A stretch of 32,000 nucleotides of DNA, from contig CAKUIA010000001.1 in the NCBI GenBank assembly GCA_934660865.1, positions 150,001 through 182,000 on the forward strand, read 5' to 3'. The notes beneath the pieces were generated by a model. It had not been told where the DNA came from. It did not search any database and worked only from the letters and a program-made list of their open reading frames with translations. The position numbers were made by a program, and so were the translations under genes. Shown one piece after another: positions 10,834 to 31,178 of this stretch. Position 1 is the stretch's first letter; each line of letters begins with the position of its first letter. The DNA is from an uncultured Opitutales bacterium. GTDB lineage: Bacteria > Verrucomicrobiota > Verrucomicrobiia > Opitutales > Intestinicryptomonadaceae.

Positions 10834-10982
10834 TTTAAAATATATTTATACTTAACAATCTTGAAAACTTTACTACTTAACTTTTTTTATTTTGGCAATG
10901 TTATTTTTACGCACGCACAAATAAACTTGTAAAAAGGGCGTTTGCGTCGAGAATTTTTAGGCGAATTTAACAACATAAAAAG

Positions 10983-13157: not shown

Positions 13158-14863
13158 TTTCTTAGCCTCCTTGCCCTGTATGCTTTCGAAAACTTTGCAA
13201 TTCCCGCAAAGAACAAATATATAAAGAGCATAATGCAAACGCTCATAACCGCAATCTTGTCGGGGTTTTTGCCTATAATGTCGCTAAAATACGAGCTTTT
13301 GCCCTCGAAGAGTATCTTTACCTCTTTAGAAATCCAAAATATGAAAATTGCGAAAAGCGCAAATGGGGCAAAATACTGCAGAATATAGGCGGTAATCATC
13401 GGCGCTTTCATTAGCGACCCCCTGTTTGCCATTCTTATGCCGCGCTTTGTTCCTATCACATAAACAAAAACCGCCGCCATAATCATCGTCAAAATATATA
13501 TGCAAACCTGCCCCGCCCAAAAGTCGAAAGTATCTAGCGCCTTTAAATTTTTGGAAAAATACGCCACAAAGAACGATGGGAACACGCTAACTGCCAGCAT
13601 TACCCAAACGGCGTGCCTGCGGCCGAAGTTTACGGCTTCGCCGAAAAACGCTATTGCGGGCTGCAACATTGAAAGCGAGCTTGTAACCGCGCCCAAAAAC
13701 AAAAGCGAAAAGAACATAAAGCCGAACAAAGCCCCGCACCATAGCGAAGAAAAAAACACGGGCAAAATCTTAAAGCCCAAGTCGAACAAACTTAGGCAAG
13801 ACCCCAGCGTTGCGCTTACGCCGAAGAACGCAACTGCGGCGGGAACGGTAATCAACCCGCCTATGCAGACTTCGCAAAATTCGTTTGTACTTGCCGCGCT
13901 AACTGCGCCCAAAACAATGTCGTCGTTCTTTTTTATGTAGCTGGCATACGTCATTATCGCGCAAAAGCCCACCGTAAGGCTAAAGAACACCTGGCCTGCG
14001 GCGGCAATCCATATCTGCGGGTTAAGCAGCTGCTTTAAAAGCGAAATTCTTACAACCCTAAATTCGTTCGGATTTTTTGCCGCAACGCTTTCGCCCCGGG
14101 CTATGGCGGGTGTGCCGACAAGCCTTTCGGCTTGCACCCATTCGTTTTTACTCGAATCGAATTTTTCCAGCAAAACCTGCTCGGGGTTCCACATAAAGCC
14201 CAAGCCCGTATTCAGGCTTTGTTCCGGCTTGTTTATGTCGGGCGTGCCCAGGCACATAACCCTTACAACCAAAATAAGCCCCAGCAAAAAAAGCATCGGC
14301 ATTGCGTATTTGCAAAAGAACTCTATACCCTTCGAAACTCCCCTGTATATTATGTAAAAGTTCAGCGCAAAAACTATCAAAAAATACGGCAGCAACTTCT
14401 TAAAGCTGAACGAAAACGCGCCGCCGTCGGCGTTTATGCCCGTAAATTCGTTAAAAAACCCCGCCGATTCCGCTAGGGTTTTAAAGTGCAAATTGTCGAA
14501 CGCAAAGTTTACCGCATAGCCCAAACACCAGGCCTCTATGTATATGTAGTACGAAAATACGATTGTCGTAAGCATTACCGCCAGCACCCCGATGTATTTT
14601 GCGCACTTGTTTTTCCATAGCGAATGGAATATGCCCACGGGCGAATTAAAGCCCAAAAGACCGCCCTCGCGCCCCATTGTCCATTCCACAATCGAAAGGG
14701 GCAAGGCTATGAAGAAAAAGGATATAACATACGCAATCATAAACGACGCGCCGCCGTAGGTTGCAACCTGCCCGGGGAATTTAAGAAAATTGCCCAGGCC
14801 TACGGCGCTGCCTGCAACCGCAAGAATTACGCCTATGTGCGAGCTCCAGTTTTCCCTCTTCAC
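13154..14863 (-). CDS. sodium-dependent transporter, neurotransmitter:sodium symporter (NSS/SNF) family
   Basis: N-terminal signature RENWSSHIGVILAVAGSAVGLGNFLKFP, 569 aa, many TM segments. The start is a GTG at 14863, 4 nt after the cysE stop. No in-frame ATG lies upstream of the conserved motif. Confidence 0.9.
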   Translation of the reverse strand: MKRENWSSHIGVILAVAGSAVGLGNFLKFPGQVATYGGASFMIAYVISFFFIALPLSIVEWTMGREGGLLGFNSPVGIFHSLWKNKCAKYIGVLAVMLTTIVFSYYIYIEAWCLGYAVNFAFDNLHFKTLAESAGFFNEFTGINADGGAFSFSFKKLLPYFLIVFALNFYIIYRGVSKGIEFFCKYAMPMLFLLGLILVVRVMCLGTPDINKPEQSLNTGLGFMWNPEQVLLEKFDSSKNEWVQAERLVGTPAIARGESVAAKNPNEFRVVRISLLKQLLNPQIWIAAAGQVFFSLTVGFCAIMTYASYIKKNDDIVLGAVSAASTNEFCEVCIGGLITVPAAVAFFGVSATLGSCLSLFDLGFKILPVFFSSLWCGALFGFMFFSLLFLGAVTSSLSMLQPAIAFFGEAVNFGRRHAVWVMLAVSVFPSFFVAYFSKNLKALDTFDFWAGQVCIYILTMIMAAVFVYVIGTKRGIRMANRGSLMKAPMITAYILQYFAPFALFAIFIFWISKEVKILFEGKSSYFSDIIGKNPDKIAVMSVCIMLFIYLFFAGIAKFSKAYRARRLRK

Positions 14864-14867
14864 TTTT

Positions 14868-15662
14868 TTACGAAATTTTTTGGTTCATTGTTTTAGATGG
14901 CTCGGCCTCGGCGGCAACGCCAACGGGCTTTGCGGGAACGCCCGCAACGGTGGTATGCGGGGCAACTTCGTCGAGCACAACCGAGCCCGCCCCTATTTTT
15001 GCGCACTTGCCAACTTTAATGTTGCCTATAATTTTTGCGCCTGCGCCTATCAAAACGCCGCTGCCGATTTTCGGGTGGCGGTCGCCCACCTCGTTGCCCG
15101 TGCCGCCCAAAGTTACTTCGTGCAAAATCGAAACGTCGTCTTCTACAACCGATGTTTCGCCCGCCACAAAAGACGTTGCATGGTCTAGCATAATGCCCCT
15201 GCCGAAACGCGCCGCGGGGTGGATGTCTACCGCAAAAACTTCGCTGTTTAGGCTTTGCAGGTAATAGGCCAAATCAATTCTGTTGCACTGCCACAAATAG
15301 TGCGAAACCCTGTAGGTTGTAATCGCCATAAAGCCCTTGTAATACAGCAGGGGCATTATGTAGCTTTTGCAGGCGGGGTCTCGCGTTCTAACGGCCGCCA
15401 AGTCGTCCAAAACGGCCTCCTTAATTTCCGGGGAATTTTCGAAAGCCTCGTTGAAAATCGAATACAAATGGTCGTAGTCCATTGCAAGCGAAACCAGCCT
15501 GCGGGATATTCTCGAGGCTACCGCCTCGAATATGTCGGACTTTTCCAAAATGGTTGAATTTACCAAAGCGCGCAATGCCGGTTCCTTTTCGGCTATGTTT
15601 TTCGCCTCGGTTAAAACGTCGTTCCAAACCGCGCTTTCTATCTCCTTATAATTTTTGCCCAT
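14868..15662 (-). CDS. cysE: serine O-acetyltransferase
   Basis: RTRDPACKSYIMPLLYYKGF (SATase N-domain) plus a hexapeptide-repeat C-terminus (IHPAARFGRGIMLDHATS...GVLIGAGAKIIGNIKVG). The ATG at 15662 is preferred over the TTG at 15782, which would overlap the upstream gene. Confidence 0.9.
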   Translation of the reverse strand: MGKNYKEIESAVWNDVLTEAKNIAEKEPALRALVNSTILEKSDIFEAVASRISRRLVSLAMDYDHLYSIFNEAFENSPEIKEAVLDDLAAVRTRDPACKSYIMPLLYYKGFMAITTYRVSHYLWQCNRIDLAYYLQSLNSEVFAVDIHPAARFGRGIMLDHATSFVAGETSVVEDDVSILHEVTLGGTGNEVGDRHPKIGSGVLIGAGAKIIGNIKVGKCAKIGAGSVVLDEVAPHTTVAGVPAKPVGVAAEAEPSKTMNQKIS

Positions 15663-15664
15663 AG

Positions 15665-16618
15665 TTAAACCAAATTTTGCGGCGTGTTGTTTAAATACAT
15701 TCTTAAATTTTCTTCGGCAATTTTTAAAAGCCTGCGTTTTGCCTGTTTTGTTGCCCAAGCCGTGTGCGCTGTAATGCGGCAATTTTCAACGCCAAGCAAA
15801 ACGTTGCCGTCTTTGGGAGGCTCGGCCGACAAAACGTCTATTCCCGCAAACGCAACCTTGCCCGAATTTAGGGCATTTGCCAGCGCTTTTTCGTCTACAA
15901 GGCCGCCGCGGGCGGTGTTTACAAGCCAAACGCCGTCTTTGCACAAAGCCAAAGTCCGTTCGTTTATAATCTTTTTATTGCTTTCGCACAAGGGACAATG
16001 CAGCGATATTATATCGGCGTTTTTAAAGAGAAAGTCCAGCGAGACAAAGTCGGCGGTGCCGTCGCTCGTATTCGGCATTTTAGAGGGGGCATAGGCCAAA
16101 ACTTTCATATCGAAAGCCTTTGCAATTTTAGCCACTTTTTTGCCTATTGCGCCGTAGCCTATAAGACCAATCGTCTTGCCGGCAAGCTCCTCTAGCGGGG
16201 TTTTTGAAAAGCAAAAATCGGGACTGTTTTGCCATGCGCCGCCCTTTACCGCAGCCGAATTTGTTTCGGTAAAAGTGGCAAAATTAAGCAAATGCGCAAA
16301 TGTGGCCTCGGCTACGCTGTTTGTGCTGTATTGCGGAATGTTGCATACCGCAATGTTCCTTTTTCGGCAATAGGGCAAATCGACATTGTTGCAGCCCGTC
16401 GCCATAACGCCTATGTATTTTAGCTTCGGCAGACAGTCTATCTGCGCTTTGCCCATAACAACTTTATTTACAAGCACACATTCGCAGTCTTTTGCGCGGG
16501 CTACAATCTCTTCAGGCAAAGTTCTGTCGTAAAACGAACATTCGCCCATTTGCCTAATGCCCGACCAATCCAAATATGCGTCCGAAAGCGGAGCGTTGTC
16601 TAATACGGCAATTTTCAT
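15665..16618 (-). CDS. D-isomer-specific 2-hydroxyacid dehydrogenase (glycerate/phosphoglycerate dehydrogenase-like)
   Basis: MKIAVLD start, NAD motif GLIGYGAIGKKVA, then NTARGGLVDEKAL and the H of ITAHTAW. The ATG at 16618 is preferred over the TTG at 16654. Confidence 0.85.
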   Translation of the reverse strand: MKIAVLDNAPLSDAYLDWSGIRQMGECSFYDRTLPEEIVARAKDCECVLVNKVVMGKAQIDCLPKLKYIGVMATGCNNVDLPYCRKRNIAVCNIPQYSTNSVAEATFAHLLNFATFTETNSAAVKGGAWQNSPDFCFSKTPLEELAGKTIGLIGYGAIGKKVAKIAKAFDMKVLAYAPSKMPNTSDGTADFVSLDFLFKNADIISLHCPLCESNKKIINERTLALCKDGVWLVNTARGGLVDEKALANALNSGKVAFAGIDVLSAEPPKDGNVLLGVENCRITAHTAWATKQAKRRLLKIAEENLRMYLNNTPQNLV

Positions 16619-16629
16619 GGCAAATCCCA

Positions 16630-17172
16630 TTAAAACGGGAACATTTCCTTCCAAAACGAGTTGCCCGCCTCTTTTTGTCTTTGTTTTTCGCTTTCGCTAA
16701 GTGGTAATTCGTGCACGGCCTGCGCTTTGTCCTGCAAAGCCTTCATTTGCTCTTGCGAAGAGTTTTTTGCAACCTGTTTCCTTTCGGGCTCTGCGGCATT
16801 TTCCGTTTCGATTTTCGCCGAATCAACCGCGTCTGCATTTGTTTTGTCGATAAGCACAAGCAGGTCCAAATCGGCCTTTTTGCCGGAATTGTCTATGGCC
16901 CTTTTCAAATTTCTGTTTTCGCGCATTAGGGCAAATGTTTGCGAGCGCGCTGCCTTTTCGGCAGCGTCTATTTTCGACTGCGCCAAAGCCGCCTCTTTTT
17001 CGGCCTTGGCAAGCTTTGCCTTAAGGTCTTGGCAGGTTTTTGTCAAAGATTCGGCCTTTTGGGCAAGTGCCTGATTTTGTTTTAGCAGCAAATCGTAGTC
17101 GCCCTGCGCAATGTCGCCGTAAGAACAAACTGTAGCTGCGACAAAAAGCGCGGTTATTGCATAAATTTTCAT
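16630..17172 (-). CDS. secreted coiled-coil protein, unknown function
   Basis: Signal peptide MKIYAITALFVAATVCSYG followed by K/A/E/Q-rich heptad-like sequence. A GTG at 17214 would add MACNAVVFTIVCCD in frame. Confidence 0.6.
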   Translation of the reverse strand: MKIYAITALFVAATVCSYGDIAQGDYDLLLKQNQALAQKAESLTKTCQDLKAKLAKAEKEAALAQSKIDAAEKAARSQTFALMRENRNLKRAIDNSGKKADLDLLVLIDKTNADAVDSAKIETENAAEPERKQVAKNSSQEQMKALQDKAQAVHELPLSESEKQRQKEAGNSFWKEMFPF

Positions 17173-17243
17173 ATCGCAACATACAATAGTAAAAACAACC
17201 GCATTGCAAGCCACTATTTAGGCTAAAAACTTGCAAAAAAAGG

Positions 17244-18050
17244 CTAAAACGGGCAATACAGTTTATGGAAATCTTCGGGGCTGTTTATGTTGCATATTTC
17301 GGGATTGTCGGAGGCTATTATTGCCTTCGAGTAGTCGGGAATGTTTTTTGCCCGCTTTTCGTTGTAGTTGGGGCTTATTGCAACGCCGCTTTCCGGCACA
17401 TAAAGGCAAATGTCTTTGCAGCAATAATAGTTATGAAAACCCAAACTCTTCATAAGGGCGCCTATTTTGCGCTGCGTTTTTTCGTCTAAAAACTTAAACA
17501 TTGCGTAGTTTGCCGCCAAATAAACTGCGTAGTTGCCCCTGTTTTCCCTTTTGTTTAAAATTTTCTTTAAATCCAAAAGTTTTGCGGGCTTTTTAGGTTC
17601 GCAATATCTTACATATACGCAAGTTGCGCTATTTTCGCCGCAGTTTTTGCCGAACGATATGCAAAAATCGCCGTTTTTTTGCAAAAAGCCCGACATAGCT
17701 TTGTACGAAAAATTTTTAAGCTCGCAATAGGGAATGTTTTTAAGGCTAAAGTCTGCGCTAAGCTTTAATTTTTTGGCATAGTATTTTGCAAAAATACCCC
17801 TTACAAAGGCCGTATTAAACAGGCATTTTCTGTGCAAAGTTGCCCCAAACAAATACTTTAAATACGCAAGTTTTTTAAAGGGCGAATTTGCCCCGTCGAA
17901 GCGGAAAGGCTCGAATATTCCGTTTTGCGCAAAACCGCCGCCGTTAAAAAACGCGTCTAAAAACGAAAATTCCGACACGGCAAAAACATCTATAGTTTTT
18001 TCGTATTTGCACTTGGGCGCATTTTGCGCGTTAAAAACCCAGTTTGTCAT
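17244..18050 (-). CDS. hypothetical protein (268 aa, Cys/aromatic-rich, basic)
   Basis: Clean ATG-to-stop ORF with no competing frame. No motif recognised. Confidence 0.6.
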   Translation of the reverse strand: MTNWVFNAQNAPKCKYEKTIDVFAVSEFSFLDAFFNGGGFAQNGIFEPFRFDGANSPFKKLAYLKYLFGATLHRKCLFNTAFVRGIFAKYYAKKLKLSADFSLKNIPYCELKNFSYKAMSGFLQKNGDFCISFGKNCGENSATCVYVRYCEPKKPAKLLDLKKILNKRENRGNYAVYLAANYAMFKFLDEKTQRKIGALMKSLGFHNYYCCKDICLYVPESGVAISPNYNEKRAKNIPDYSKAIIASDNPEICNINSPEDFHKLYCPF

Positions 18051-18231
18051 CTTGCTACCGTTTTATGTTTTGACTTTTAAAATATTCGGTTTCGTTTGTA
18101 GCGCATAAACAAAAACTATTCAAACGTTTTCTGAAATTCTTAAGCATAATTGGCACACAAAAAAAACGGCATAAATTGCATGTAAAAATTTCTTGTTAAG
18201 TTTGCAAAATATGCTTAGGTTCGGCTTTAAT

Positions 18232-18684
18232 ATGGTAAAAATATTTAAATTTTCACAGATAAAAGACTCTCCATTTGCCGCAAAAAAGGGTTTTGATAAA
18301 CTGGTTGAATACGTTTTAAAAAACGATGTTTTTAAAATGCCGCTGGGCAAATACGAAATAGACGGCAAAAACCTGTTTTTTGAAATTTCGAACTGCAATT
18401 TGCGCGCAAAGCAAAATGCTCCGCTGGAAGCCCACAAAAAATACGCCGACTTGCAGCTTATTTTAGAGGGCGCCGAAACATTCGGGCTTTCCGACACAAA
18501 CGTTTGCAGGAGTGTGAAAACCCCGTATAACCTGGAAAAAGACATGGAGTTTTTTGAAGACGCCCCCGAGCAGTACAAAAACCTAAGCGCGGGCGAATTT
18601 ATGGTGTTTTTCCCCGAAAACGCGCATGCGCCTCTTATCGGCGAAGGCTCGGTAAAAAAGATTGTGTTTAAGATACTTCTTTAA
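18232..18684 (+). CDS. YhcH/YjgK/YiaL (DUF386) family protein
   Basis: GKYEIDGKNLFFEIS...LEAHKKYADLQLILEGAE...GEFMVFFPENAHAP matches the family pattern (E. coli YhcH: GRYELQGDNIF...ELHEQYIDIQLLLNGEE...GMFAVFMPGEPHKP). An alternative ATG lies at 18211. Confidence 0.8.
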   Translation: MVKIFKFSQIKDSPFAAKKGFDKLVEYVLKNDVFKMPLGKYEIDGKNLFFEISNCNLRAKQNAPLEAHKKYADLQLILEGAETFGLSDTNVCRSVKTPYNLEKDMEFFEDAPEQYKNLSAGEFMVFFPENAHAPLIGEGSVKKIVFKILL

Positions 18685-20389: not shown

Positions 20390-20475
20390 AGGCCGAACAA
20401 AAACATTTATAATAAAAAACGCCTTTAGTTGTTTTTGCTTTTTACGATTTGTTTAACACAAACAAATATAAAAAA

Positions 20476-20985
20476 ATGAATAGTTCGTCTCTAAGAATTA
20501 CAGGTGTGTTTTTGCTGTTGTTGGGAATATTGTGCCTGGCGTATCCCGTTTTTTCGGCATTTTGGGCGGAAAGCTTTACGGCCATAGTTTTGGCCATTGC
20601 CGCAGTATTTACGTTTGCGCTGGCGGCCAAGGAAAGCTCGTATGCCGATAAGGCCATATACGCATTTATGGGCATAATATACATTGCAGGGTGCCTATTT
20701 TTGGTGTTTAACCCCGTTGTGGGGCTTACGGTTATGATGGCCGCCTTTGCCGTGATATTCTTTTGCGAGGGAGTTTTTGCGCTGGCATTGTTTGCACGCA
20801 AAAGCAGACACCGCAACTGGCTTATGCTTATAAACGCATTGGCAAGTTTTATTTTGGCGTTTTTGGTTTTTGCAAACGTAAACGAAGGCGTTTTGTTTAT
20901 TGGCTTGCTTGTAGGCATAGATCTTATTTTTACGGGAATAGGGCTTTTGTTTTGGTCGCCGCAGGCCCGTTTAAACGAAAGCTAA
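20476..20985 (+). CDS. HdeD/DUF308-family membrane protein
   Basis: Repeated pairs of TM helices (GVFLLLLGILCLAYP..., GIIYIAGCLFLVFNP..., LINALASFILAFLVF..., IGLLVGIDLIFTGIGLL) typical of DUF308. The ATG at 20476 is preferred over the TTG at 20449. Confidence 0.7.
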   Translation: MNSSSLRITGVFLLLLGILCLAYPVFSAFWAESFTAIVLAIAAVFTFALAAKESSYADKAIYAFMGIIYIAGCLFLVFNPVVGLTVMMAAFAVIFFCEGVFALALFARKSRHRNWLMLINALASFILAFLVFANVNEGVLFIGLLVGIDLIFTGIGLLFWSPQARLNES

Positions 20986-21068: not shown

Positions 21069-23258
21069 CTACTTTGCCTTTGCGGCAGCGGGAACTTCCG
21101 TTTTTGCGGGGGCTTCTTTCGCCTTGTCTTTCCCGGCATTTTCCTTTTCGGCTTTCGCCTTCATATAGGAGCTTTGCGGCAAAAACTTTGCGTCTTTAAA
21201 GCAGCCGAAATACCATGCGCCGTAAAATATTGCCGTTATCAAAGCCAAAATAACCACAAAATTCCTTACGCCGTGGTGCGGCGAATACGGGTCTAGCAGG
21301 TCGCGCTTGGAACCCTTCGGCAAAGAGGCTGTGTTTGTAAGCATGCCGCCAAAGGCTATATTTATTTTTGCCCTGGTGTTAACGGCCCAACCGTTTGCGT
21401 CAAGCAATGGGCCTAGGTTGCGCATTCTAAGCTTTAAGGCCGCCAATACCATAGAAGGCAGCGATATTGCAAGTATTATGCCAACAATGCCAAGCGGTAT
21501 ATACCAGCCCAGGCCGAAAAACGAATCCAGCAAAATGCCGAATGTTGCGGTCAGGCCGCTTACGGCAACGCCCAAGGCAGCCACCGTGCCGACATCTATC
21601 TTCTTTTGAGGGGCTGCAACCGAAGTTTGCAGGTTTGCCTGCGCCTTTTCGTCGGCCTGGCTTGCAAATTTTGCAATTTGCTCGGAAATCCATTTCGAGC
21701 ACTTTTTGTAGGGCGACCAAAAGGCCTGCGCAATGCTTATCGGGTTTTCGACCACTTTTACAACAACGGCGTCCCAGTCGCGGCCGAGGGTGTCGTAAAA
21801 CACGCCGTTTCGCCCCGCCATTAGGTTGTCGTTGTCGCCCGAAGTTACGGCGGCTACAATGGTCATGGGCGGCATACCCGCCCTTTTGCAGTTGCAGTAA
21901 AGCAGGTATGTGTAGCTTAGCGCGCTCATTGCCGAATGGTTGCCGACGTTTTCCACGGCAATGCACAAATCGCAAACCCTTTGGTCTATATAAAGCCTGC
22001 CGACCTGAAATGCCGACTTGTTTTTGCCCTCGTAAAACGACTTAAAGCTTACAAAATTTGTAAGCACTCCGAGCAGGTCGGCGTTAAGACGAACAAGCTT
22101 TTCCACCGAGAATATCGCGTCGTATTCGGCGCGCAGCGTTTCGTCTTTTTCGACTATTTTTGCGAGCTTTTTGCGGTAGTCCAAGTCCGCAAATTTTGCG
22201 ATAAAATCTTTGCCGAGTTTGTCGGGCAAGTCGTTCGGTTTTGCCGAAATCCATTTTGCAAAAGGCGCAAATTTGGCCGCTATTTTTGCAAAGTCGGCCG
22301 CGCTAATTTTGGCAATTTCGCCGCCCAAAATTTTAGAGGCTACGTCTTTAAAATTGTCTACCTGAACTTGCCAGGCGGGGTTTACGCCTTTTTCGAAATC
22401 GAAAAATTCGCTGTCGCCAATCAACGCTATGGGCAGCTTTTTAAGCTGCGCGTCGCGCGAATCTGCATCGGCAAAAATTGCAGCTATTTCCTCCTTTGCG
22501 GGGTTTAGGCTGTCGGCCGAGGCACTGTCGTAGCTAAGAACCGCCCTGCGGGTAAAGTAGTCGTTCAGCTTTTCGGCAACGGCATTGTAGGCGTCGTAGG
22601 CGGCCGCTGTTTCGCCGCCCAAAAACAGAATGTCTTTGTCGTTAACTTCGTTTTCCAACCAGCTTTGCGAAGCCTTTAAATCGTCGAAAAACGCGTTTAT
22701 TTGCGCCAAATCTACACCGTCTTTGCCCGACCTGTCTTTTTTCGCGCCGTACAATTCCGCTATTTTCCCGATTAAATCGGCACAGACCGTGTCGCCTTCG
22801 GCCGATTCGGGAATGATTATGCCGTCGGCATTAAAAATTGTATTTTCGTATACCGAGCCTCTGTCGAAATCTTCGGGCAAAAGGGTGTTGTTCCTGCCGA
22901 AGTTTTTTGCCAAGTGTTCGGCGGCCGCCTTTACTATTTTCGAGTTTTCGCTGTCGTCGCTTATGTTCGAAATTTCAAGCTCGCGGCTGCCGTCCAAAAG
23001 ACAGTCGGCGTTTTTCAGCATTTTGCATGTCCATTCGCAGGCGTCTATTAGCTCTTTTGCGCGTATTTTTCCGTCGCAGTCGGTATCTATAAAGGCGAGT
23101 GTTTTTTCGTTTAAATTCGTTCCCTTAACGGGGCAGCTTAACGCAGTCCACAATTTTAAGTCCAGATTGCGCAAATTTGCTATGTCGCTACCCGACTCGA
23201 ATTTTACCTGATAAACGCCGCCCGCTTTAAAAAAGCTCCAAGTATGTTTAGTTTCCAT
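21069..23258 (-). CDS. large hypothetical protein with a canonical EF-hand loop and three C-terminal TM helices
   Basis: 729 aa with no signal peptide. DTDCDGKIRAKE (aa 58-69, nt 23052-23087) fits the 12-residue EF-hand loop at positions 1, 3, 5, 6, 8 and 12. Hydrophobic helices at about aa 556-579, 584-608 and 665-686. K/A/E-rich tail. Confidence 0.75.
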   Translation of the reverse strand: METKHTWSFFKAGGVYQVKFESGSDIANLRNLDLKLWTALSCPVKGTNLNEKTLAFIDTDCDGKIRAKELIDACEWTCKMLKNADCLLDGSRELEISNISDDSENSKIVKAAAEHLAKNFGRNNTLLPEDFDRGSVYENTIFNADGIIIPESAEGDTVCADLIGKIAELYGAKKDRSGKDGVDLAQINAFFDDLKASQSWLENEVNDKDILFLGGETAAAYDAYNAVAEKLNDYFTRRAVLSYDSASADSLNPAKEEIAAIFADADSRDAQLKKLPIALIGDSEFFDFEKGVNPAWQVQVDNFKDVASKILGGEIAKISAADFAKIAAKFAPFAKWISAKPNDLPDKLGKDFIAKFADLDYRKKLAKIVEKDETLRAEYDAIFSVEKLVRLNADLLGVLTNFVSFKSFYEGKNKSAFQVGRLYIDQRVCDLCIAVENVGNHSAMSALSYTYLLYCNCKRAGMPPMTIVAAVTSGDNDNLMAGRNGVFYDTLGRDWDAVVVKVVENPISIAQAFWSPYKKCSKWISEQIAKFASQADEKAQANLQTSVAAPQKKIDVGTVAALGVAVSGLTATFGILLDSFFGLGWYIPLGIVGIILAISLPSMVLAALKLRMRNLGPLLDANGWAVNTRAKINIAFGGMLTNTASLPKGSKRDLLDPYSPHHGVRNFVVILALITAIFYGAWYFGCFKDAKFLPQSSYMKAKAEKENAGKDKAKEAPAKTEVPAAAKAK

Positions 23259-24144: not shown

Positions 24145-25419
24145 TTACAAAACGCTGTCGAGCGCCTCTTTTAGGTCGTCGATATGCTCCAGGCCAATCG
24201 AAAGGCGTATAAGCTCGGGAGTTAGACCGCTTGCCGCCTGCTGGGCTTCGTCTAGCTGCGAGTGCGAAGTTGAAGATGGGTGCAAAATAAGGCTTTTTGA
24301 GTCGCCTACGTTTGCAAGGTTGCTGAAAAGCGGGATATTGTCTACCAACTTTACCGCCGCATTGTAGCCGCCCTTTACGCCGAATACTACCATTCCGCCG
24401 AAGCCATTTTTAAGATATTTGCTTGCAAGCGGGTAGCTTGGGTCGTCGGGCAAGCCGGGGTAGCGAACCCACGAAACCGACTTGTGCGCCTTAAGGAATT
24501 TTGCGATTTCAAGCGCGTTTTCGCTGTGGCGCTTTATGCGCAAAGGCAAACTTTGCAAGCCCTGCAAAAATATCCACGCGGCGTCGGGGGCAAGGGTTGG
24601 CCCTATGTTGCGCAAGCCTACCGTTCTTAGCCTTAAGATGAAGGCAAGCTTGTTGTTTTCGCCCAAGTCGTGCGCAAAGCGCAGGCCGTGGTAGCCGCCG
24701 TCGGGCTCGTTATACAACGCAAACTTTTTGTCGCTCCAGTCGAAATTGCCCGCGTCTATAACTGCGCCGCCAATGCCCGTGCCGTGCCCGCCAATCCATT
24801 TGGAAAGCGAGTGTATTACAATGTTCGCGCCGTAGTCTATCGAGCGTATCAATGTAGGAGGCGTAAAAGTTGCGTCTACAATCAGGGGCAGGTGGTATTC
24901 TTTTGCGATTTTCGCGTAGCCTTCAATGTCGGCCGCGTCCAAAACGGGGTTGCCCAAAGTTTCTATGTAAATCGCGCGCGTGCGCTCGTTTATGGCGGCC
25001 TTTACTTCGGCAAAATCGTTTACCTTTGTAAAGTGCGCCTTAATGCCGAACTGCGGCAAAATGGAATTGAACTGAACGTAGGTGCCGCCGTAAAGGTTGT
25101 TGGCGGCTACCAGCTCGTCGCCCGCTTTTAATATGTTGGTTATGGCAAACGCTATTGCCGCCGTGCCCGACGAAAGCGTAAGGGCAGCCGCCCCGCCCTC
25201 TAAGGCTGCAAGCCTCTTTTCGAGAACGTCGTTTGTCGGGTTCATTAAGCGGGCGTATATGTTGCCCGGTTCTCTCAGGGCAAAAAGGTCTGCACCGTGC
25301 TTTGCGCTTTTAAAGTTAAAAGCCGTTGTTCTGTATACGGGAACGGCCCTTGCCAATGTAGTCGGGTCGGGAACCTGCCCTGCGTGAAGTGCCAATGTTT
25401 CGGGTCTGTAGTTGCTCAT
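24145..25419 (-). CDS. metY: O-acetylhomoserine (O-acetylserine) sulfhydrylase, PLP-dependent
   Basis: [40 protein letters not shown], and the PLP-lysine context [11 protein letters not shown]. 424 aa. Confidence 0.9.
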
Positions 25420-25460
25420 TTTATTTTCCTTTCAAATAGTTTGTTGGTGTTTTGTTGGTG

Positions 25461-26459
25461 TTAAAATTCGTATTTTATAGAGGCCGCCCATGCGGTGTTT
25501 TCGCGTGTATTTAAAACCGTGCCCAAGTGGCCGTAGCCCGCGGTAACAGTAAGGTGCTCGTTTACAACGGCCGCAAGCCCTATCGTCCACCAGTCGCTTT
25601 CTTCGCCTACAAGCTGTTTGGAGCCCGCGCTTATCGGCGAATATTGGTTTATCTTTTGGCGGTATTCAAAGGCCGCAAAAAGCCAGTCGGTTATGCCGAA
25701 TACCGCGTTGCCTTCGGCGGAAAATTCGTATTTGCCGGAATAGCCCGTATAGCCCAAGTTTGAAGCGTCGGTAGCCCTGCCCGTAATCGACAAAATTAGA
25801 GGGTGCCCGTAAATCAAAAATGTTTTCGAAGCGGTTATGGTAAATTCAACGCCGTATTCCCTGTCGTAGCCCTTTTGCGAAAGCAGGCCGCCGAGGTTGT
25901 CGTTTATTTCGCCAATGCCGTCGTTATACTTGCCATGAACGCCAACCGTTATTGCCGGCACAAAGCCTTCGTAAAAATCGTTTTCCTTTATCACGTTAAA
26001 GCGGGCGTTTACGGTGTGCAGCCAAACGTCGTTGCGGTCTATATTTGCCCCCGCATACTGCAAAATGTCGCTTTGCAGCGAACCCGTGCCGAAGCGGCTT
26101 GCGTTGTACGAAAGCTCCAATTTGCCGAACAGCGTTTCGCTTACTACAAAGCTTTCAACATTCTTTTGGCGCGCGTTAACGTAGGTTGCGCCAAAACTTG
26201 GCAGGGCAAAATCGGTGCCTTCGGGCCCCGGGTTTACCAAATAGGCTATGGGGGTTAAAACCACGCCGCCTACGCCGTCTATTGTAAACAAAGGCAAAGG
26301 AGCTGCCTTTTGCGGCTTTGCGCTTTGCTGCGTTTTGTTTGCGGCCTCTTTGGGCTGGGCGGCTTCGGCGTTAATGGCGGCTTCGTTCGAGGCCGCATAG
26401 GTTATGGGAGAAACGGCAAGGATTGCCGCCAGTTTATATATTGCAGAAATTTGTTTCAT
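25461..26459 (-). CDS. outer-membrane beta-barrel protein (putative porin), unknown family
   Basis: Signal peptide MKQISAIYKLAAILAVSPITYA, alternating amphipathic beta-strand pattern, and a C-terminal ...SIKYEF ending in an aromatic residue. Confidence 0.65.
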   Translation of the reverse strand: MKQISAIYKLAAILAVSPITYAASNEAAINAEAAQPKEAANKTQQSAKPQKAAPLPLFTIDGVGGVVLTPIAYLVNPGPEGTDFALPSFGATYVNARQKNVESFVVSETLFGKLELSYNASRFGTGSLQSDILQYAGANIDRNDVWLHTVNARFNVIKENDFYEGFVPAITVGVHGKYNDGIGEINDNLGGLLSQKGYDREYGVEFTITASKTFLIYGHPLILSITGRATDASNLGYTGYSGKYEFSAEGNAVFGITDWLFAAFEYRQKINQYSPISAGSKQLVGEESDWWTIGLAAVVNEHLTVTAGYGHLGTVLNTRENTAWAASIKYEF

Positions 26460-26553
26460 TTTTATTGTCCTTATGCTTTTTAATTTTTTTGTTTGTTTAA
26501 TTTTTGCCTTTAATGGCGTGTTTGTTTTTTTGTCGATTTCCGTTTAAGAGCAA

Positions 26554-26598
26554 CGGCGGCCAATTCCTTTTTTTGGAACAACGGTTAAACCGCCGCCG
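26554..26598 (-). promoter_or_regulatory. GC-clamp hairpin in the porin-metY leader
   Basis: Plus-strand CGGCGGC (26554-26560) pairs with GCCGCCG (26592-26598). An inner hairpin TTCC-T7-GGAA lies at 26564-26578. No U-run follows on either strand. Confidence 0.45.
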
Positions 26599-26695
26599 CA
26601 AACATTCGCATAGAACAACAACAGCTTTGTTTTTCGCTTATAAGATCGTAAAAATCTTTGTTGTGTGAAAATTGCCTGTAAGTTTCAAATTTCAT
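26585..26695 (-). CDS. candidate leader-peptide sORF (36 codons) with three consecutive Cys codons
   Basis: Minus-strand ATG at 26695 through TAA at 26587-26585. Translation: MKFETYRQFSHNKDFYDLISEKQSCCCSMRMFAAAV. It is below the length cutoff of the ORF track. Confidence 0.3.
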   Translation of the reverse strand: MKFETYRQFSHNKDFYDLISEKQSCCCSMRMFAAAV

Positions 26696-26781
26696 TATGT
26701 CTACCGTTATGGTAATGTATTTTTAAAAGTCAACACATTTTTTAAAAATTTTTTATTTTTTAGTAAAATAGCCGTATAACT

Positions 26782-26809
26782 TGCATATTTACTGCATATT
26801 TTTGCATAT
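26782..26809. repeat. three direct TGCATAT repeats at 10-11 bp spacing
   Basis: TGCATAT occurs at 26782-26788, 26793-26799 and 26803-26809, in the 573-bp divergent intergenic region. Confidence 0.8.
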
Positions 26810-27032
26810 ATTCGCCCGATTTGCCCCAAATATTTTTCATAATATAGGCAATATAAAAGCCATTCACTACTTTTTTAATAGCGTAATATGCGCAACAGGA
26901 AAATGTGCGGCTAAAATGCGTATGCAATAAACGAATAAATAAAACAACAGTGCTTTTATTTTGAGAATACAACAGCCAAAAAAGTTTCCGATAAAAACAT
27001 GTGGCAACCTACAATTTATCCACCAATAAAAA

Positions 27033-27554
27033 ATGAGAATCTTTACCGCTATTTTGCTTATAATTTTGTGCATATTCCTGTTCGATTGCTCAACGCAGCC
27101 CAAGCTTGAGCCGCAGACCGCGCAAAATATAGACATAAGAAAATATATGGGGCTTTGGCACGAGGTTGCGCGCTCGAAAAACCTTTTTGAAAACAACATT
27201 GTAAGCGCCCAAGCCCAATATTCGCTAAATGCCGACAACACCGTAAGCGTGCTAAACACAGGCACGCGCAAAAACGGCATAACAAAAAACATAAAAGGCA
27301 AAGCCTACGCCCCAAACCTGCACGACTTTTCAAAGCTAAGGGTTACATTTTTTTGGCCCTTTTACGGCGACTACAATATTTTGGCCGTAGGCGAAAACTA
27401 CAACTGGGCGCTTGTAGGCGGCGACAAATATTTGTGGATACTTTCCAGAACCATTCCCATACCCAGAAGCGAGCTAAACGACATTCTGCAAAAAGCAGCC
27501 TCTTTAGGCTACACAACCGACAACCTAATATACAACCAAAACACGGTAAAATAA
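27033..27554 (+). CDS. blc: bacterial lipocalin (Blc-like)
   Basis: YMGLWHEVAR (lipocalin motif 1), later YAPNLHDFSKLRVTFFWPFYGDYNILAVGENYNWALVGG...LWILSR. Signal peptide with Cys19; the lipobox LFDC is atypical. Confidence 0.88.
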   Translation: MRIFTAILLIILCIFLFDCSTQPKLEPQTAQNIDIRKYMGLWHEVARSKNLFENNIVSAQAQYSLNADNTVSVLNTGTRKNGITKNIKGKAYAPNLHDFSKLRVTFFWPFYGDYNILAVGENYNWALVGGDKYLWILSRTIPIPRSELNDILQKAASLGYTTDNLIYNQNTVK

Positions 27555-27610: not shown

Positions 27611-28393
27611 TCACGGCAAACTTACGGTTTTTTTTGTCAATCCAGAGAGTTTTTCTGCAATTATTTTTCCGTAATATAAATCGGGCATATCCGCCTTAAA
27701 GTACGGCTTTTTCAAAGCGATAGCCTTTTCTATACCGAAGGGAACATATGGTTCTATATGAATCTCCGACACCGACGAAAACGAATTTGCCATGTCTGCA
27801 ATTTTTTGCAAACAAAACCCGCTGTCGTTTAAAGAAGGAATCATAGGGCACCGCAAGAAAATGCGAGTACATGCATATTCGGCATTTTCCGCAATAGCCT
27901 TGTCTATAAAATTAAGATTATCAACAACTACATTTAACGGCTTGCCCGTATATTCAAAATGCTTTTTTTCGTCTAAAATTTTTATGTCAAAAAGCCATAA
28001 ATCTACCAACGGCAAAAAGCGCGCAAGCACAGACTTTGCAGCATAACCGCTAGTTTCCACCGCCGTATGCACCCCGTGCGATTTTGCGCCTTCCAACAAC
28101 TCAACAGCAAAATCGGGCGCAGCCAAAACCTCTCCACCCGAAAGCGTAAGCCCGCCAGCCGACGCATCGTAAAAATCCTTGTCTTTTAAGACTTCGTTTA
28201 AAACCGCCTTAGCAGACATTACTTTGCCTATAGGCGTTCCGTCGGGATACTGCCCTATTCCGAAATCCTGACTTTCTGGAGAATGGCACCAAATGCAGCG
28301 CAACGGACACCCCCTAAGGAACACAACAGTGCGTATTCCGGGGCCGTCGTGGGTTGAAAATTTGTCTATTTTTAAGACAACCGCTTTTTGCAT
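27611..28393 (-). CDS. glycyl-radical enzyme activating protein (radical SAM, short PflA-like form)
   Basis: FSTHDGPGIRTVVFLRGCPLRCIWCHSPES (CxxxCxxC at 28286-28309) and GGLTLSGGEVL. The ATG at 28393 puts 28 aa before the first Cys, as in PflA. The ATG at 28477 would overlap the GRE by 79 nt. Confidence 0.88.
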   Translation of the reverse strand: MQKAVVLKIDKFSTHDGPGIRTVVFLRGCPLRCIWCHSPESQDFGIGQYPDGTPIGKVMSAKAVLNEVLKDKDFYDASAGGLTLSGGEVLAAPDFAVELLEGAKSHGVHTAVETSGYAAKSVLARFLPLVDLWLFDIKILDEKKHFEYTGKPLNVVVDNLNFIDKAIAENAEYACTRIFLRCPMIPSLNDSGFCLQKIADMANSFSSVSEIHIEPYVPFGIEKAIALKKPYFKADMPDLYYGKIIAEKLSGLTKKTVSLP

Positions 28394-28398
28394 GGACT

Positions 28399-30768
28399 CT
28401 ACACAAGCCTGTGTCGTTCTATAACCTCGTTTTGCCAACGTTCCGACAAAGCGACAAAACGCGCAGAAAAACCGCATACTTTCACCATTAAATCCATGTG
28501 GCGTTCGGGGTGCTTTTGCGCGTCTATAAGGTCTTCTACAGAATTGCAGTTAGGCTGCAAAAGGTGCCCGCATTTCTTTGCAAAAACCCTAAATATGGCG
28601 GCAAAAGTCTCGGCACTCATAGCGTGCTTGTCGAAAGTAAGATTGGCGTTCGATGCAATCAGACATTCGTGAGGAAGCGTTGCGATAGAGTTCAAAACCG
28701 TTGTAATACCCTCTTTGCAGCGGTATTCGCTGGGCGAAAATCCCTGCGCAAAGCGGTCGCCGTTGTACCTGCCGTCGGGAGTCGCCTTTGCACCGTTTCC
28801 CCAATACATAAACTCTCTATATATCAAAATCGCCAAGTGGTACGAATCGTTTTGGTCGGTCGTAAAACCCTCTATGTCGTCGTGAATTTTCCGCATCCAC
28901 CACACCATTTGCTCGCACGACTTTTTCGAACCGTCGCCCCAATACGGAGCCTTTAACACCTCTGCGCGCAAACGTTGTCCGTCGTCGCCCTCCCAGTTGT
29001 TTCGAACGGCATTCAGCAGCTCTTTTATAGTGCAAATTTTTTTGTCGAAACAAACGTATTCTATTGCCAACAGCGAATCCACAACATTGCCCAAAAACGC
29101 CAAAGTGATTACGCGCGGGCGAGATGCTACACCGCCGTCGGTAGTATCGCGTCGGCTTTCTATTGCACCTTTTAGACACATAGAATATACGGGATAAGGC
29201 GAAACCTTCGCAATTTGCCTTCCGTACCTAGTATATTGCCCCATCGCACTCCTGAAAAACTTTATAAAATTCCTGTATGCAATGCGCTGCGCATCGCCCG
29301 CGCTCTTTGCGTTTTGCAGGGGTTCAATTTCTATTTGCGCCTCTTTTTCTAAATTTTTATCCTGGTATATTGAAAGCTCCAAAGTTCTTACAACGGAAAC
29401 ATAGTTTGCGTCGTCTACGTCCATTACCGAATCTATGTAGCCATTCCAACAACCGCACGCAACATATTCCCTTGCATCCTCGTCAGAAAAACCGCAATTT
29501 TTGTAATATGGAATATGGCGGTCGTCGTTAAACAGCGCAAACACACAATGCCCCTTCATAAGCATATCTCCGATTTGCAGGAAATATTCTTGCGGCGAAT
29601 TAGACGATATCCTGCAATGCAATTTTGGGAATACACAATCTGCGGCATAGTGCATTTCTATAAACATTTTTGTTAGGTCGTTATACACTACGTTCCCGTA
29701 TTTGTCGCACCCGCCCAATGTTATGGGAATTTCCATTTCGTGGTCGTCGTATCCGTCTACCTTGCGCATACCGTCGTGATGGCAATCGGCGGTAATCATA
29801 AATTTTGCAATCAATTCCTTTGCCTGGGCTACAGTTAAACGCCCTTCGGCTATGTCGGCCTTGTACAGGCCATACAGCCAAGCATCGCAACGCCCCATTG
29901 CATACACAGAAACCCCGTCTATATAGCCGAGTATTTCGCGCATAAACCAAAGAGTGTTTAGCCCTTCGTAAAATGTTTTCGGCGGTTCCCACGGGCAACG
30001 CTTTGCGGATTGCGCAATCATATTAAAGTTATTGCGCTGCCTTTCGGTTAAAGACGGGTCTTTTAAACGCCTTTCTGCTTCGTCTGCAAACGAAAGCTGT
30101 ATCTTATGCAGCGTTTTCAATCCTTCAATAGCTGTCTGCAACTCCTTTTTGCCCAATATATCGTCGCTTGGACAGCTCTTTAACGCTGCTTGAACATCGG
30201 CATAAACGCCGCCAAAACCCTTGCTTAAAATTGTTCTCGCAGGTGGAATATGGTGAATTGAATCGACAAAAGGCCCGCAACAAAGCGTGAGGCGTTCTTT
30301 ATTGCGCCTCTTGAACACCTTAAAGGCTTCGTCGGGAATCAAGTTTTTTTCACGGTAAAAACGCGAACAAAGATGCCAAGCCATTCTGGCTGGGCGCGCT
30401 CCCGCCCAGCCACCGTTTACGCCAGCTTCAAAATAAAACGGCGATTCGGTAAAAATAAACGGGACAAAGTGCGTACGCATAGACTCGTACAATTTTTTGC
30501 GTATATCCAATGCATCATAATTGGGGTTGAGTTTTGTATACGCGATTATTTCGCTCTGAATTTTCTTTACGCTGTCTATTTGTCTAATGTCTTTTGCTTT
30601 ACCGTGGCATTCGTCAGGATAAAAAGCGCGAAGCTGCTTGCGTAAAGCCGCATAGTCTTCGGAGCAATTTAAACTTGAAGCCCCAAGCACGCCATTGCCG
30701 GCAAAAACCGTTGCAGTTGCTGCCATAGCCGTATTTTTTAAAAAATTTCTCCTCGATATCATATACAT
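28399..30768 (-). CDS. PFL2/glycerol-dehydratase-type glycyl radical enzyme with an N-terminal twin-arginine signal
   Basis: C-terminal VKVCGFSARFVALSERWQNEVIERH (Gly766 at 28471-28473). Cys loop AREYVACGCWNG (Cys440 at 29449-29451). N-terminus MYMISRRNFLKNTAMAATATVFAGNGVLGASS. Confidence 0.88.
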   Translation of the reverse strand: MYMISRRNFLKNTAMAATATVFAGNGVLGASSLNCSEDYAALRKQLRAFYPDECHGKAKDIRQIDSVKKIQSEIIAYTKLNPNYDALDIRKKLYESMRTHFVPFIFTESPFYFEAGVNGGWAGARPARMAWHLCSRFYREKNLIPDEAFKVFKRRNKERLTLCCGPFVDSIHHIPPARTILSKGFGGVYADVQAALKSCPSDDILGKKELQTAIEGLKTLHKIQLSFADEAERRLKDPSLTERQRNNFNMIAQSAKRCPWEPPKTFYEGLNTLWFMREILGYIDGVSVYAMGRCDAWLYGLYKADIAEGRLTVAQAKELIAKFMITADCHHDGMRKVDGYDDHEMEIPITLGGCDKYGNVVYNDLTKMFIEMHYAADCVFPKLHCRISSNSPQEYFLQIGDMLMKGHCVFALFNDDRHIPYYKNCGFSDEDAREYVACGCWNGYIDSVMDVDDANYVSVVRTLELSIYQDKNLEKEAQIEIEPLQNAKSAGDAQRIAYRNFIKFFRSAMGQYTRYGRQIAKVSPYPVYSMCLKGAIESRRDTTDGGVASRPRVITLAFLGNVVDSLLAIEYVCFDKKICTIKELLNAVRNNWEGDDGQRLRAEVLKAPYWGDGSKKSCEQMVWWMRKIHDDIEGFTTDQNDSYHLAILIYREFMYWGNGAKATPDGRYNGDRFAQGFSPSEYRCKEGITTVLNSIATLPHECLIASNANLTFDKHAMSAETFAAIFRVFAKKCGHLLQPNCNSVEDLIDAQKHPERHMDLMVKVCGFSARFVALSERWQNEVIERHRLV

Positions 30769-30909
30769 AACATTTTGATTTTAGTATCCGAAGCGACATG
30801 GTATTTTACCACCGCAAAATTACAAGTAAAAAAAACTTTATCACAACTATTCCCGCAATAATTCCAATATTGCGCTACGGAAATTCAAAAAAATACAAAT
30901 TTAGGGCAC

Positions 30910-31059: not shown

Positions 31060-31093
31060 AATAAAAATGCGGGTTTTCCGAAGAAACCCGCAT
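31060..31093 (-). terminator. intrinsic terminator after tRNA-Thr
   Basis: Minus-strand GCGGGTTT / AAACCCGC (plus 31069-31076 / 31084-31091) followed by TTTTATT (plus AATAAAA 31060-31066). Confidence 0.75.
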
Positions 31094-31105
31094 AAAAATT
31101 AACCG

Positions 31106-31178
<73 letters not shown>

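Follow-up and report, generated by a model that had tools for sequence, protein, structure and literature searches.

The glycyl radical enzyme (GRE) described here is encoded on the minus strand of a 32,000-nucleotide stretch of DNA (46% G+C) from an uncultured gut Opitutales bacterium, which spans positions 150,001 to 182,000 of contig CAKUIA010000001.1 (assembly GCA_934660865.1) and is referred to as the window. The GRE precursor of 789 residues carries a predicted twin-arginine translocation (Tat) signal and is followed by the gene for its putative activase, a radical S-adenosylmethionine (SAM) enzyme. The GRE reading frame ends with HRLV-TAG and, after the five nucleotides AGTCC, the activase begins with ATG CAA AAA. 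The two genes form one unit, the upstream boundary of which is marked by a tRNA-Thr gene and its terminator, while a divergent lipocalin gene lies on the other side. The longer activase open reading frame (ORF) of 288 residues that was listed for the window is a mere upstream open-frame extension overlapping the GRE, and lacks a hydrophobic segment. The elements of the unit, in window coordinates, are as follows:

28399..30768, minus strand: GRE precursor, 789 residues (ORF, Pfam, Foldseek)
30676..30768, minus strand: predicted Tat signal peptide, residues 1–31, MYMISRRNFLKNTAMAATATVFAGNGVLGA, putatively cleaved before SS (TIGR01409, model confidence, hydropathy)
30736..30756, minus strand: twin-arginine consensus S5-R6-R7-N8-F9-L10-K11 (read from the sequence)
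29440..29454, minus strand: Cys loop G439-C440-W441-N442-G443, putative thiyl radical site (alignment)
28456..28485, minus strand: glycyl radical motif VKVCGFSARF with Gly766 (Pfam Gly_radical, alignment)
27611..28393, minus strand: GRE-activating radical SAM enzyme, 260 residues (TIGR02494)
28286..28309, minus strand: CX3CX2C motif of the activase, C29-PLR-C33-IW-C36 (invariant alignment columns; Pfam Radical_SAM and Fer4_12)

By every feature examined, the predicted product of the larger gene is a GRE of a PFL2-like, so far uncharacterised family. Residues 171–650 match the PFL-like domain (PF02901, E=6e-75) and residues 673–772 the Gly_radical domain (PF01228, E=3e-18). The motif VKVCGFSARF with Gly766, which is of the RVxG[FWY] type, and the G439-C440-W441 segment do not vary among the full-length homologues aligned from the retrieved loci. 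Likewise, C765 and G766 are invariant across all four family groups that were aligned (26 members of the signal-bearing clade, 7 signal-less paralogues of that clade, 9 sequences from Lentisphaeria/Victivallales and 19 from Clostridia). The initial annotation of this DNA, which had recognised the glycyl radical motif and the Cys loop and placed the activase start 5 nucleotides after the GRE stop, was correct on each of these points. The Cys loop takes the form G-C-W-N/D/G. Position 442 is occupied by Asn in the window enzyme and 73% of the clade, whereas Lentisphaeria have Asp and Clostridia Gly there. None of these residues is the Glu that follows the Cys by two positions in dehydratases and lyases of the GCxE type, namely glycerol dehydratase (GDH), propanediol (PD) dehydratase, CutC, HypD and IslA. 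None of the NCBIfam equivalog or subfamily cut-offs is reached: the scores are 227.7 against a cut-off of 678.2 for TIGR01774 (PFL2-3 subfamily), 197.6 against 1100 for HypD and 189 against 1050 for CutC, with the remaining models (sulfopropanediol dehydratases, PFL, IAD, HPAD) scoring lower still. The nearest structures found by Foldseek are GDH, propanediol dehydratase, Archaeoglobus fulgidus PFL2, CutC and PflD, with template modelling (TM) scores of ~0.78 (range 0.74–0.80; 0.78 to 1r8w, 5i2g and 2f3o), and identity to these structures and to named GREs is only 19–25%. Judged by these scores and identities, the GRE belongs to no named GRE family. It shares with the cytoplasmic PFL2-type enzymes (B12-independent glycerol dehydratase, 1,2-propanediol dehydratase, CutC, HypD, PflD/YbiW) the fold, the glycyl radical domain, the mid-barrel Cys loop and the adjacent radical SAM activase, but differs in having a GCWN rather than a GCxE loop and an export signal that is known from none of them. 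Six further cysteines (C134, C199, C258, C378, C531 and C684) are invariant in the Kiritimatiellae/Verrucomicrobia clade, including its signal-less paralogues, and absent from the Clostridia homologues; disulfides or a metal site are possible roles.

The N-terminus of the GRE reads MYMISRRNFLKNTAMAATATVFAGNGVLGASSLNCSED, where SRRNFLK is an exact Tat consensus. From residue frequencies, we estimate the chance of an exact [ST]RRxFLK match at ~1e-6 per protein N-terminus. A Tat motif scan of the 1012 candidate ORF starts in the window returned the GRE as the sole real N-terminus, the second match being an internal start inside a transporter gene. With the TIGR01409 model (TAT_signal_seq), the full-length GRE reaches 19.7 bits and its N-terminal 50 residues 24.1 bits, both above the curated NCBI cut-off of 16.7. 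Pfam's own Tat model gave no report on the GRE at E<=0.01. The 25 residues after the motif are uncharged and 60% G/A/S/T, and their Kyte-Doolittle hydropathy peaks at 1.65 over 10 residues. Both the exact motif and the weakly hydrophobic, G/A/T-rich h-region had been described in the initial annotation, and both withstand this analysis. Candidate cleavage sites, read from the sequence and not by a predictor, are L-G-A/S-S or G-A-S/S, and orthologues show xxA/x sites at comparable distances. In an AlphaFold2 model built from a 24-sequence alignment (mean predicted local distance difference test (pLDDT) score 83, predicted TM-score 0.86), residues 1–6 and 10–35 have pLDDT values <50 and the first helix modelled with confidence begins at residue 36, such that the signal segment is predicted to lie outside the fold; pLDDT is also <50 for Cys-loop residues 440–453. 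The initial annotation regarded this segment as an N-terminal extension of the GRE fold. Its position outside the fold and its absence from signal-less relatives uphold that view, but the protein is overall no longer than GDH or HypD (residue 178 aligns with GDH residue 170), and the term extension therefore rests on the signal-less family members and the structure model, not on length. By sequence criteria, we consider residues 1–31 to be a genuine twin-arginine signal peptide.

N-terminal non-catalytic targeting extensions are also present on CutC and other GREs associated with bacterial microcompartments (BMC), and the segment could in principle be an encapsulation peptide of this type. The window peptide is, however, of a different kind, comprising an RR-containing n-region and an uncharged G/A/T-rich stretch rather than an amphipathic helix. 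Moreover, a tblastn search with the BMC-H shell protein PduA had no match in the window or in any of 84 loci, and BMC Pfam domains were absent among the neighbours scanned. With no shell genes in the window or the 84 loci, we rejected encapsulation as highly improbable.

A protein search yielded 395 homologues, of which the best 120 clusters (54–98% identical) were used for N-terminus counts, and a genome scan in which each species was represented once returned 79 loci. An export signal is present on ~115 of these 120 closest GRE clusters: ~30 have RR Tat motifs, ~20 have the same motif with RK (T-R-K-x-F-I) and ~60 have classical Sec-type signals, such as MKKLLVSALVASVAVVEVWAG, with only 2 or 3 complete sequences lacking any signal. 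Two lines of evidence place this trait within the family. Firstly, homologues from Lentisphaeria/Victivallales (43–47% identity) have no signal and start at about residue 38 of the window GRE, 3–12 residues before a conserved LRxxLRxFY helix, and all Clostridia/Oscillospiraceae homologues (33–35% identity) share this signal-less start; overall, the starts of signal-less family members fall at about residues 37–41. When 1.84 billion representatives of clusters at 50% identity were searched exhaustively, the signal-bearing clade collapses to one representative with a Sec-like signal (P0241), and the next ~25 full-length relatives (31–45% identity, ~750 residues) are all signal-less. Secondly, a neighbour-joining tree places every signal-bearing form within one Kiritimatiellae/Verrucomicrobia crown clade, inside which RR, RK and Sec signals switch repeatedly and are secondarily lost in a few cases. 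From this distribution, we conclude that the signal arose once, in the Kiritimatiellae/Verrucomicrobia clade, as a derived, add-on trait. The hydropathy of the h-region is similar for RK-type and RR-type signals (1.99 versus 1.92, p=0.55), and both are below the Sec-type value of 2.52 (p<1e-5), which corresponds to the difference expected between Tat and Sec signals.

The subclade of the window enzyme consists of eight orthologues (the window, L002, L001, L005/L083, L084, L003, L004 and L026) from Opitutales, Verrucomicrobiaceae, Kiritimatiellia and Lentisphaeraceae metagenome-assembled genomes (MAGs). The [ST]RRxF motif is kept in 8/8 of them at 64–99% identity, as is [ST]RRxF[LIM], while the h-region diverges and alternative in-frame start codons occur at varying positions. 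On TIGR01409, the subclade proteins P0002 (20.8 bits) and P0006 (28.2 bits) pass, and P0005 is borderline at 16.6 bits. This pattern of conservation indicates that the Tat motif is under purifying selection in the subclade and that the RR pair follows the clade.

The same conservation bears on whether the start codon has been assigned correctly, since translation from M15 or V27 would yield a cytoplasmic GRE without the RR pair. An in-frame ATG at codon 15 and a GTG at codon 27 offer such starts, and no obvious Shine-Dalgarno sequence precedes the first ATG. On the other hand, the RR pair is conserved in the protein across 64–99% identity while the alternative starts shift position between orthologues, initiation at M15 would leave an orphan hydrophobic stretch, and the signal-less relatives begin shortly before the LRxxLRxFY helix and not at positions resembling M15 or V27. 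We consider a mis-assigned start very unlikely. A promoter-like site ~35 nucleotides 5' of the first ATG weakly fits translation from the upstream ATG, within a consensus scan that is itself weak (4 sites found versus 7.9 expected), and an Rfam search revealed no riboswitch or leader RNA 5' of the GRE. The features on this side of the unit are:

30803..30830, minus strand: promoter-like site TTTACT-16-(TG)TAAAAT (consensus scan)
31067-31093, minus strand: terminator-like hairpin of tRNA-Thr (terminator scan)
31105-31178, minus strand: tRNA-Thr (ARAGORN, Rfam)

The clade-wide trait appears from the sequences to be wider than one gene, comprising also Sec-type signals on GREs and Tat-type signals on activases. 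Several GRE paralogues occur per Kiritimatiellae MAG (three each in RGIG6720 and RGIG10146, two each in RGIG2765, UMGS1035, UBA1731 and others), and signal types are mixed within single Kiritimatiellae genomes (loci L013–L079). One GRE is a real fusion of a Sec signal, a glycoside hydrolase of family GH16 and the GRE (P0051, 1038 residues; L041:6093-9554). The Sec signals and the GH16 fusion would be difficult to account for if the catalytic domain acted in the cytoplasm. Apparent fusions of 990–1215 residues in L010, L012 and L019 were discarded as open-frame artefacts of high-GC DNA, their true starts being TRK-type signals. At L012, the GRE-activase pair is directly followed downstream by an OmpA-family lipoprotein gene and then by tatA/B (PF02416) and tatC (PF00902, E=6e-50) (L012:11530-13521), the lipoprotein gene alone separating the pair from the translocase genes. 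In addition, classical Tat substrates are encoded near the GRE in sister Opitutales loci, namely a Gfo/Idh/MocA oxidoreductase in L029 (MKRRTFVKN) and a flavoprotein in L084 (SRRDFVKM).

Alternatively, the N-terminal peptide could be a vestigial or repurposed Tat-like tag, serving for chaperone binding as in NarG, as a membrane tether or in regulation, on a GRE that stays in the cytoplasm. Remnant Tat motifs are known from cytoplasmic enzymes such as NarG, the characterised GREs are, as far as is known, all cytoplasmic, the signal-less activase of the window is consistent with a cytoplasmic partner, and the signal has been lost again in some paralogues of the clade (L027, L030, L031, L033, L079, L006 and L046). 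Yet, unlike the degenerate remnants of the NarG type, the window peptide has an intact n-region and h-region and passes TIGR01409. Furthermore, the strict retention of RR in all eight orthologues does not fit a vestigial tag, and the signal interchanges among paralogues with bona fide Sec signals and the GH16 fusion. We therefore regard a purely cytoplasmic GRE as quite improbable.

The activases adjoining GREs of this family fall into two kinds. The window activase, which begins MQKAVVLKIDKFSTHDGPG, scores 218.6 bits on TIGR02494 (cut-off 174.35) and has no N-terminal hydrophobic segment, no signal, no auxiliary cysteines and no N-terminal extension relative to the activases with Tat signals. 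It belongs to the first kind, which has neither signal nor ferredoxin-like insert, contains the motif CHSP and is present in the window, L001, L002, L004, L005/L083, L084, L019, L026, L029 and L049. The absence of a signal peptide noted in the initial annotation thus extends to all subclade activase loci. The second kind has a Tat-like N-terminal extension of 35–40 residues, as in MELLDRRVFIAGAASFAAVPLLGA and MTITRKEFIASTAAFAVSPMLAG, and a reduced insert with four cysteines; examples are L009:12510-13346, L012:10526-11401, L016 ~4000-4763, L041:9586-10431 and L048:1893-2774. The insert has 8–10 cysteines in the Clostridia and Victivallales activases and 4 in those with Tat signals, and it has been lost entirely from the subclade activase, which is PflA-like in this respect. 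In a search with the L012 activase, the closest 120 clusters (P0121–P0240; 71–99% identity, mostly Kiritimatiellae) include 114 with a Tat-type signal. The basic pair is RR in 49 of these and RK or KR in 65, and in each case a stretch of 12 or more uncharged residues and a basic c-region (AAGRxVKTP) come after it. The other six are for the most part gene calls that were truncated. If functional, these Tat-type signals imply export of an Fe-S radical SAM enzyme. A cluster initially taken for a second activase (ACT1) was rejected, since it is an AraC-type regulator.

The signals on the two partners appear to be correlated. Eight loci have a signal-less activase together with a visible GRE N-terminus, and the GRE signal there is Tat-RR in seven, TRK in L019 and Sec in none. 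UMGS1035, by contrast, has a Sec-type GRE without its own activase (L020) beside an activase of the second kind (L012) in the same genome. Although the numbers are small, the pattern is coherent: a cytoplasmic activase goes with a GRE that uses the pathway for folded proteins, and an exported activase goes with a GRE signal that may be RR, RK or Sec. A different arrangement is found at L080, where the activase (10001-10858) has a Tat-like signal and the GRE (14379-16688), two genes downstream, is signal-less. This GRE belongs to a different family (24% identical to the window GRE, Cys loop GCYEF), and the other products of the operon all have Sec or canonical Tat signals.

We suggest that the window encodes a GRE of an uncharacterised family with a genuine Tat signal, which is most likely activated in the cytoplasm and then exported to the periplasm by the Tat pathway, and we assign this reading a probability of roughly 0.6. 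The GRE would fold in the cytoplasm, where the signal-less activase encoded 5 nucleotides downstream would most likely abstract the hydrogen from Gly766. Since the activase needs SAM and a cytoplasmic reductant, the radical form is most likely made there. The Tat translocase would subsequently move the folded enzyme, probably as a dimer, to the periplasm, the signal would be cleaved near Ala31, and the GRE would act in the anoxic periplasm on a probably carbohydrate-derived substrate. The analysis shows the sequence features directly, with their conservation and phylogenetic distribution, and the presence of export signals throughout the clade, whereas each step of this scheme, from folding and activation to Tat transport, cleavage of the signal and the nature of the substrate, is inferred, as is the order in which activation and export take place. 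The initial annotation had favoured the same reading, for which the comparisons above provide support.

Several observations weigh against this proposal. A GRE that is quenched in the periplasm would be beyond re-activation by a cytoplasmic activase, and its catalytic thiol would be placed where thiols are normally oxidised. Neither tatA nor tatC was found in the 32-kb window, and the Leu at position -3 of the L-G-A/S cleavage site is acceptable but not ideal. TIGR01409 scores neither the RK variants nor the activase signals, including an RR-containing activase, and those signals therefore rest on motif and hydropathy analysis only. L080, by pairing a signal-bearing activase with a signal-less GRE of another family, indicates that the logic of localisation is not fully understood. 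Lastly, the Sec-type paralogues and Tat-type activases of the sister lineages imply activation outside the cytoplasm there, such that activation followed by export is not the sole option and periplasmic activation is a live alternative, at least in those lineages.

For the window enzyme itself, periplasmic activation would require that the activase be co-exported on the Tat signal of the GRE or that another exported activase be used. The Tat or Tat-like signals on sister-lineage activases (L009, L012, L016, L041, L048 and 114 of the 120 closest clusters) are compatible with this, as is the consideration that Sec-type GREs can become active only after export, and the reversed arrangement of L080, with the signal on the activase and none on the GRE, fits piggy-back export. 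Hitch-hiking on a signal-bearing partner is indeed documented for Tat-exported cofactor enzymes, hydrogenase subunits among them. However, no periplasmic source of SAM or of low-potential electrons is known, GRE and activase are not known to form a complex of the stability that co-export demands, and the subclade activase has lost both signal and ferredoxin-like insert in all loci, for which a cytoplasmic enzyme is the simplest reading. We thus consider activation of the window GRE after export to be unlikely.

More broadly, and with less than even confidence, we raise the possibility that gut and rumen bacteria of the Planctomycetes-Verrucomicrobia-Chlamydiae (PVC) group operate a whole glycyl-radical system outside the cytoplasm. 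It would comprise GREs exported via Tat or Sec and, in many lineages, a Tat-exported Fe-S activase that makes the radical in the periplasm, and it would act on glycan-derived substrates that never enter the cell. The window enzyme would then represent a variant that is activated first and exported afterwards. Radical generation outside the cytoplasm, if true, implies either that SAM and low-potential electrons reach the periplasm by some route or that the activase is loaded before export and turns over only once.

To our knowledge, all characterised GREs are cytoplasmic, and both GREs and the radical SAM enzymes that activate them are regarded as confined to the cytoplasm; SAM and reduced flavodoxin or ferredoxin serve to introduce the radical. 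The initial annotation considered an exported GRE to be undescribed, and full-text literature searches, with most subscription journals outside coverage, returned no paper on an exported GRE or an exported activase. The clade of signal-bearing GREs from gut and rumen bacteria, with signal-bearing activases in some members, appears to be undescribed. All 79 genome loci derive from MAGs or uncultured-isolate assemblies, which may explain why the trait has gone unnoticed. If the enzyme is exported, a protein-backbone radical either survives Tat transport or is generated outside the cytoplasm, radical chemistry on C-X bonds would be available in the periplasm of anaerobes, and the GRE would constitute a new kind of Tat cargo.

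Parts of this scheme have counterparts in known systems. Tat-exported cofactor enzymes, such as [NiFe] hydrogenases, the DMSO-reductase family and Gfo/Idh/MocA proteins, share the S/T-R-R-x-F-L-K signal and a maturation that depends on the cytoplasm and precedes translocation. Their cofactor is a bound metal centre or nucleotide, whereas that of the window enzyme would be a protein-backbone radical generated by a radical SAM enzyme; we know of no Tat cargo with such a radical. Sulfatases matured by anaerobic sulfatase-maturing enzymes (anSME), abundant in PVC bacteria, offer a second parallel, in that a protein is modified in the cytoplasm by a radical SAM enzyme and later exported to the periplasm. 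There, the product is a stable formylglycine and not a persistent radical, and the sulfatase is unrelated to GREs. In Chlamydomonas, PFL and the PFL-activating enzyme both have N-terminal targeting peptides and meet in an organelle, which parallels the Kiritimatiellae loci where GRE and activase both carry signals. This contrasts with the window, where only the GRE carries a signal, and the destination in Chlamydomonas is an organelle matrix with SAM and reductants rather than the periplasm.

The genomic context suggests that the substrate is probably carbohydrate-derived. Besides the GH16 fusion, the neighbours in Kiritimatiellae include DUF4838, GH71/99-like, CE15 glucuronyl esterase, AXE1 and GH39 proteins, together with proteins that contain 3-keto-disaccharide-hydrolase domains or HZS_alpha and FGE-sulfatase domains. 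GH78 and GH43 are encoded at L083 and GH92 at L002, and the cytoplasmic Clostridia homologues adjoin an AraC regulator, sugar-type ABC transporter components and a short-chain dehydrogenase/reductase. Across the clade, no conserved functional partner was found besides the activase, and within the subclade of the window enzyme the neighbours differ in every locus. Gut metagenomes of humans, ruminants and horses contain this GRE family in abundance, with single 90%-identity clusters of up to 418 member sequences. Given this abundance, the several paralogues per Kiritimatiellae genome and the glycoside hydrolase and esterase neighbours, the family may be an unrecognised route of anaerobic glycan breakdown.

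Proteins of ~1000 residues adjoin signal-bearing GREs in ~10 Kiritimatiellae loci (L025:2-2779; cluster c3 in L004, L008, L013, L020, L026, L050, L076 and L077). They have a middle HZS_alpha domain, two CxxCH motifs and a C-terminal FGE-sulfatase domain, and could be a periplasmic partner or an electron carrier.

Within the 32-kb window, no other Tat substrates were found. A 729-residue ORF and four smaller ORFs (21069-23258, 16630-18578 and 20442-20918, minus strand) match no Pfam family at E<=1e-4. Downstream of the GRE unit lie genes for an O-acetylhomoserine sulfhydrylase and a signal-bearing DUF3034 protein (24145-26459, minus strand), which are present in both the window and L002, and further on a serine acetyltransferase gene (14868-15782, minus strand). 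At L084, a NitT/TauT-type ABC transporter and a porin adjoin the GRE. The sulfhydrylase, the serine acetyltransferase and the NitT/TauT-type transporter give a weak hint at sulfur metabolism.

The same neighbours are found on contig CAKTSY010000004.1 of an uncultured Opitutales MAG from Hadza gut metagenomes, where the GRE is 99% identical to that of the window. This contig (L002) has a GH92 alpha-mannosidase-like gene of 826 residues (L002:13758-16238) between the lipocalin and DUF3034 genes, which is absent from the window (26460-27033 compared) and points to a strain-level insertion or deletion.

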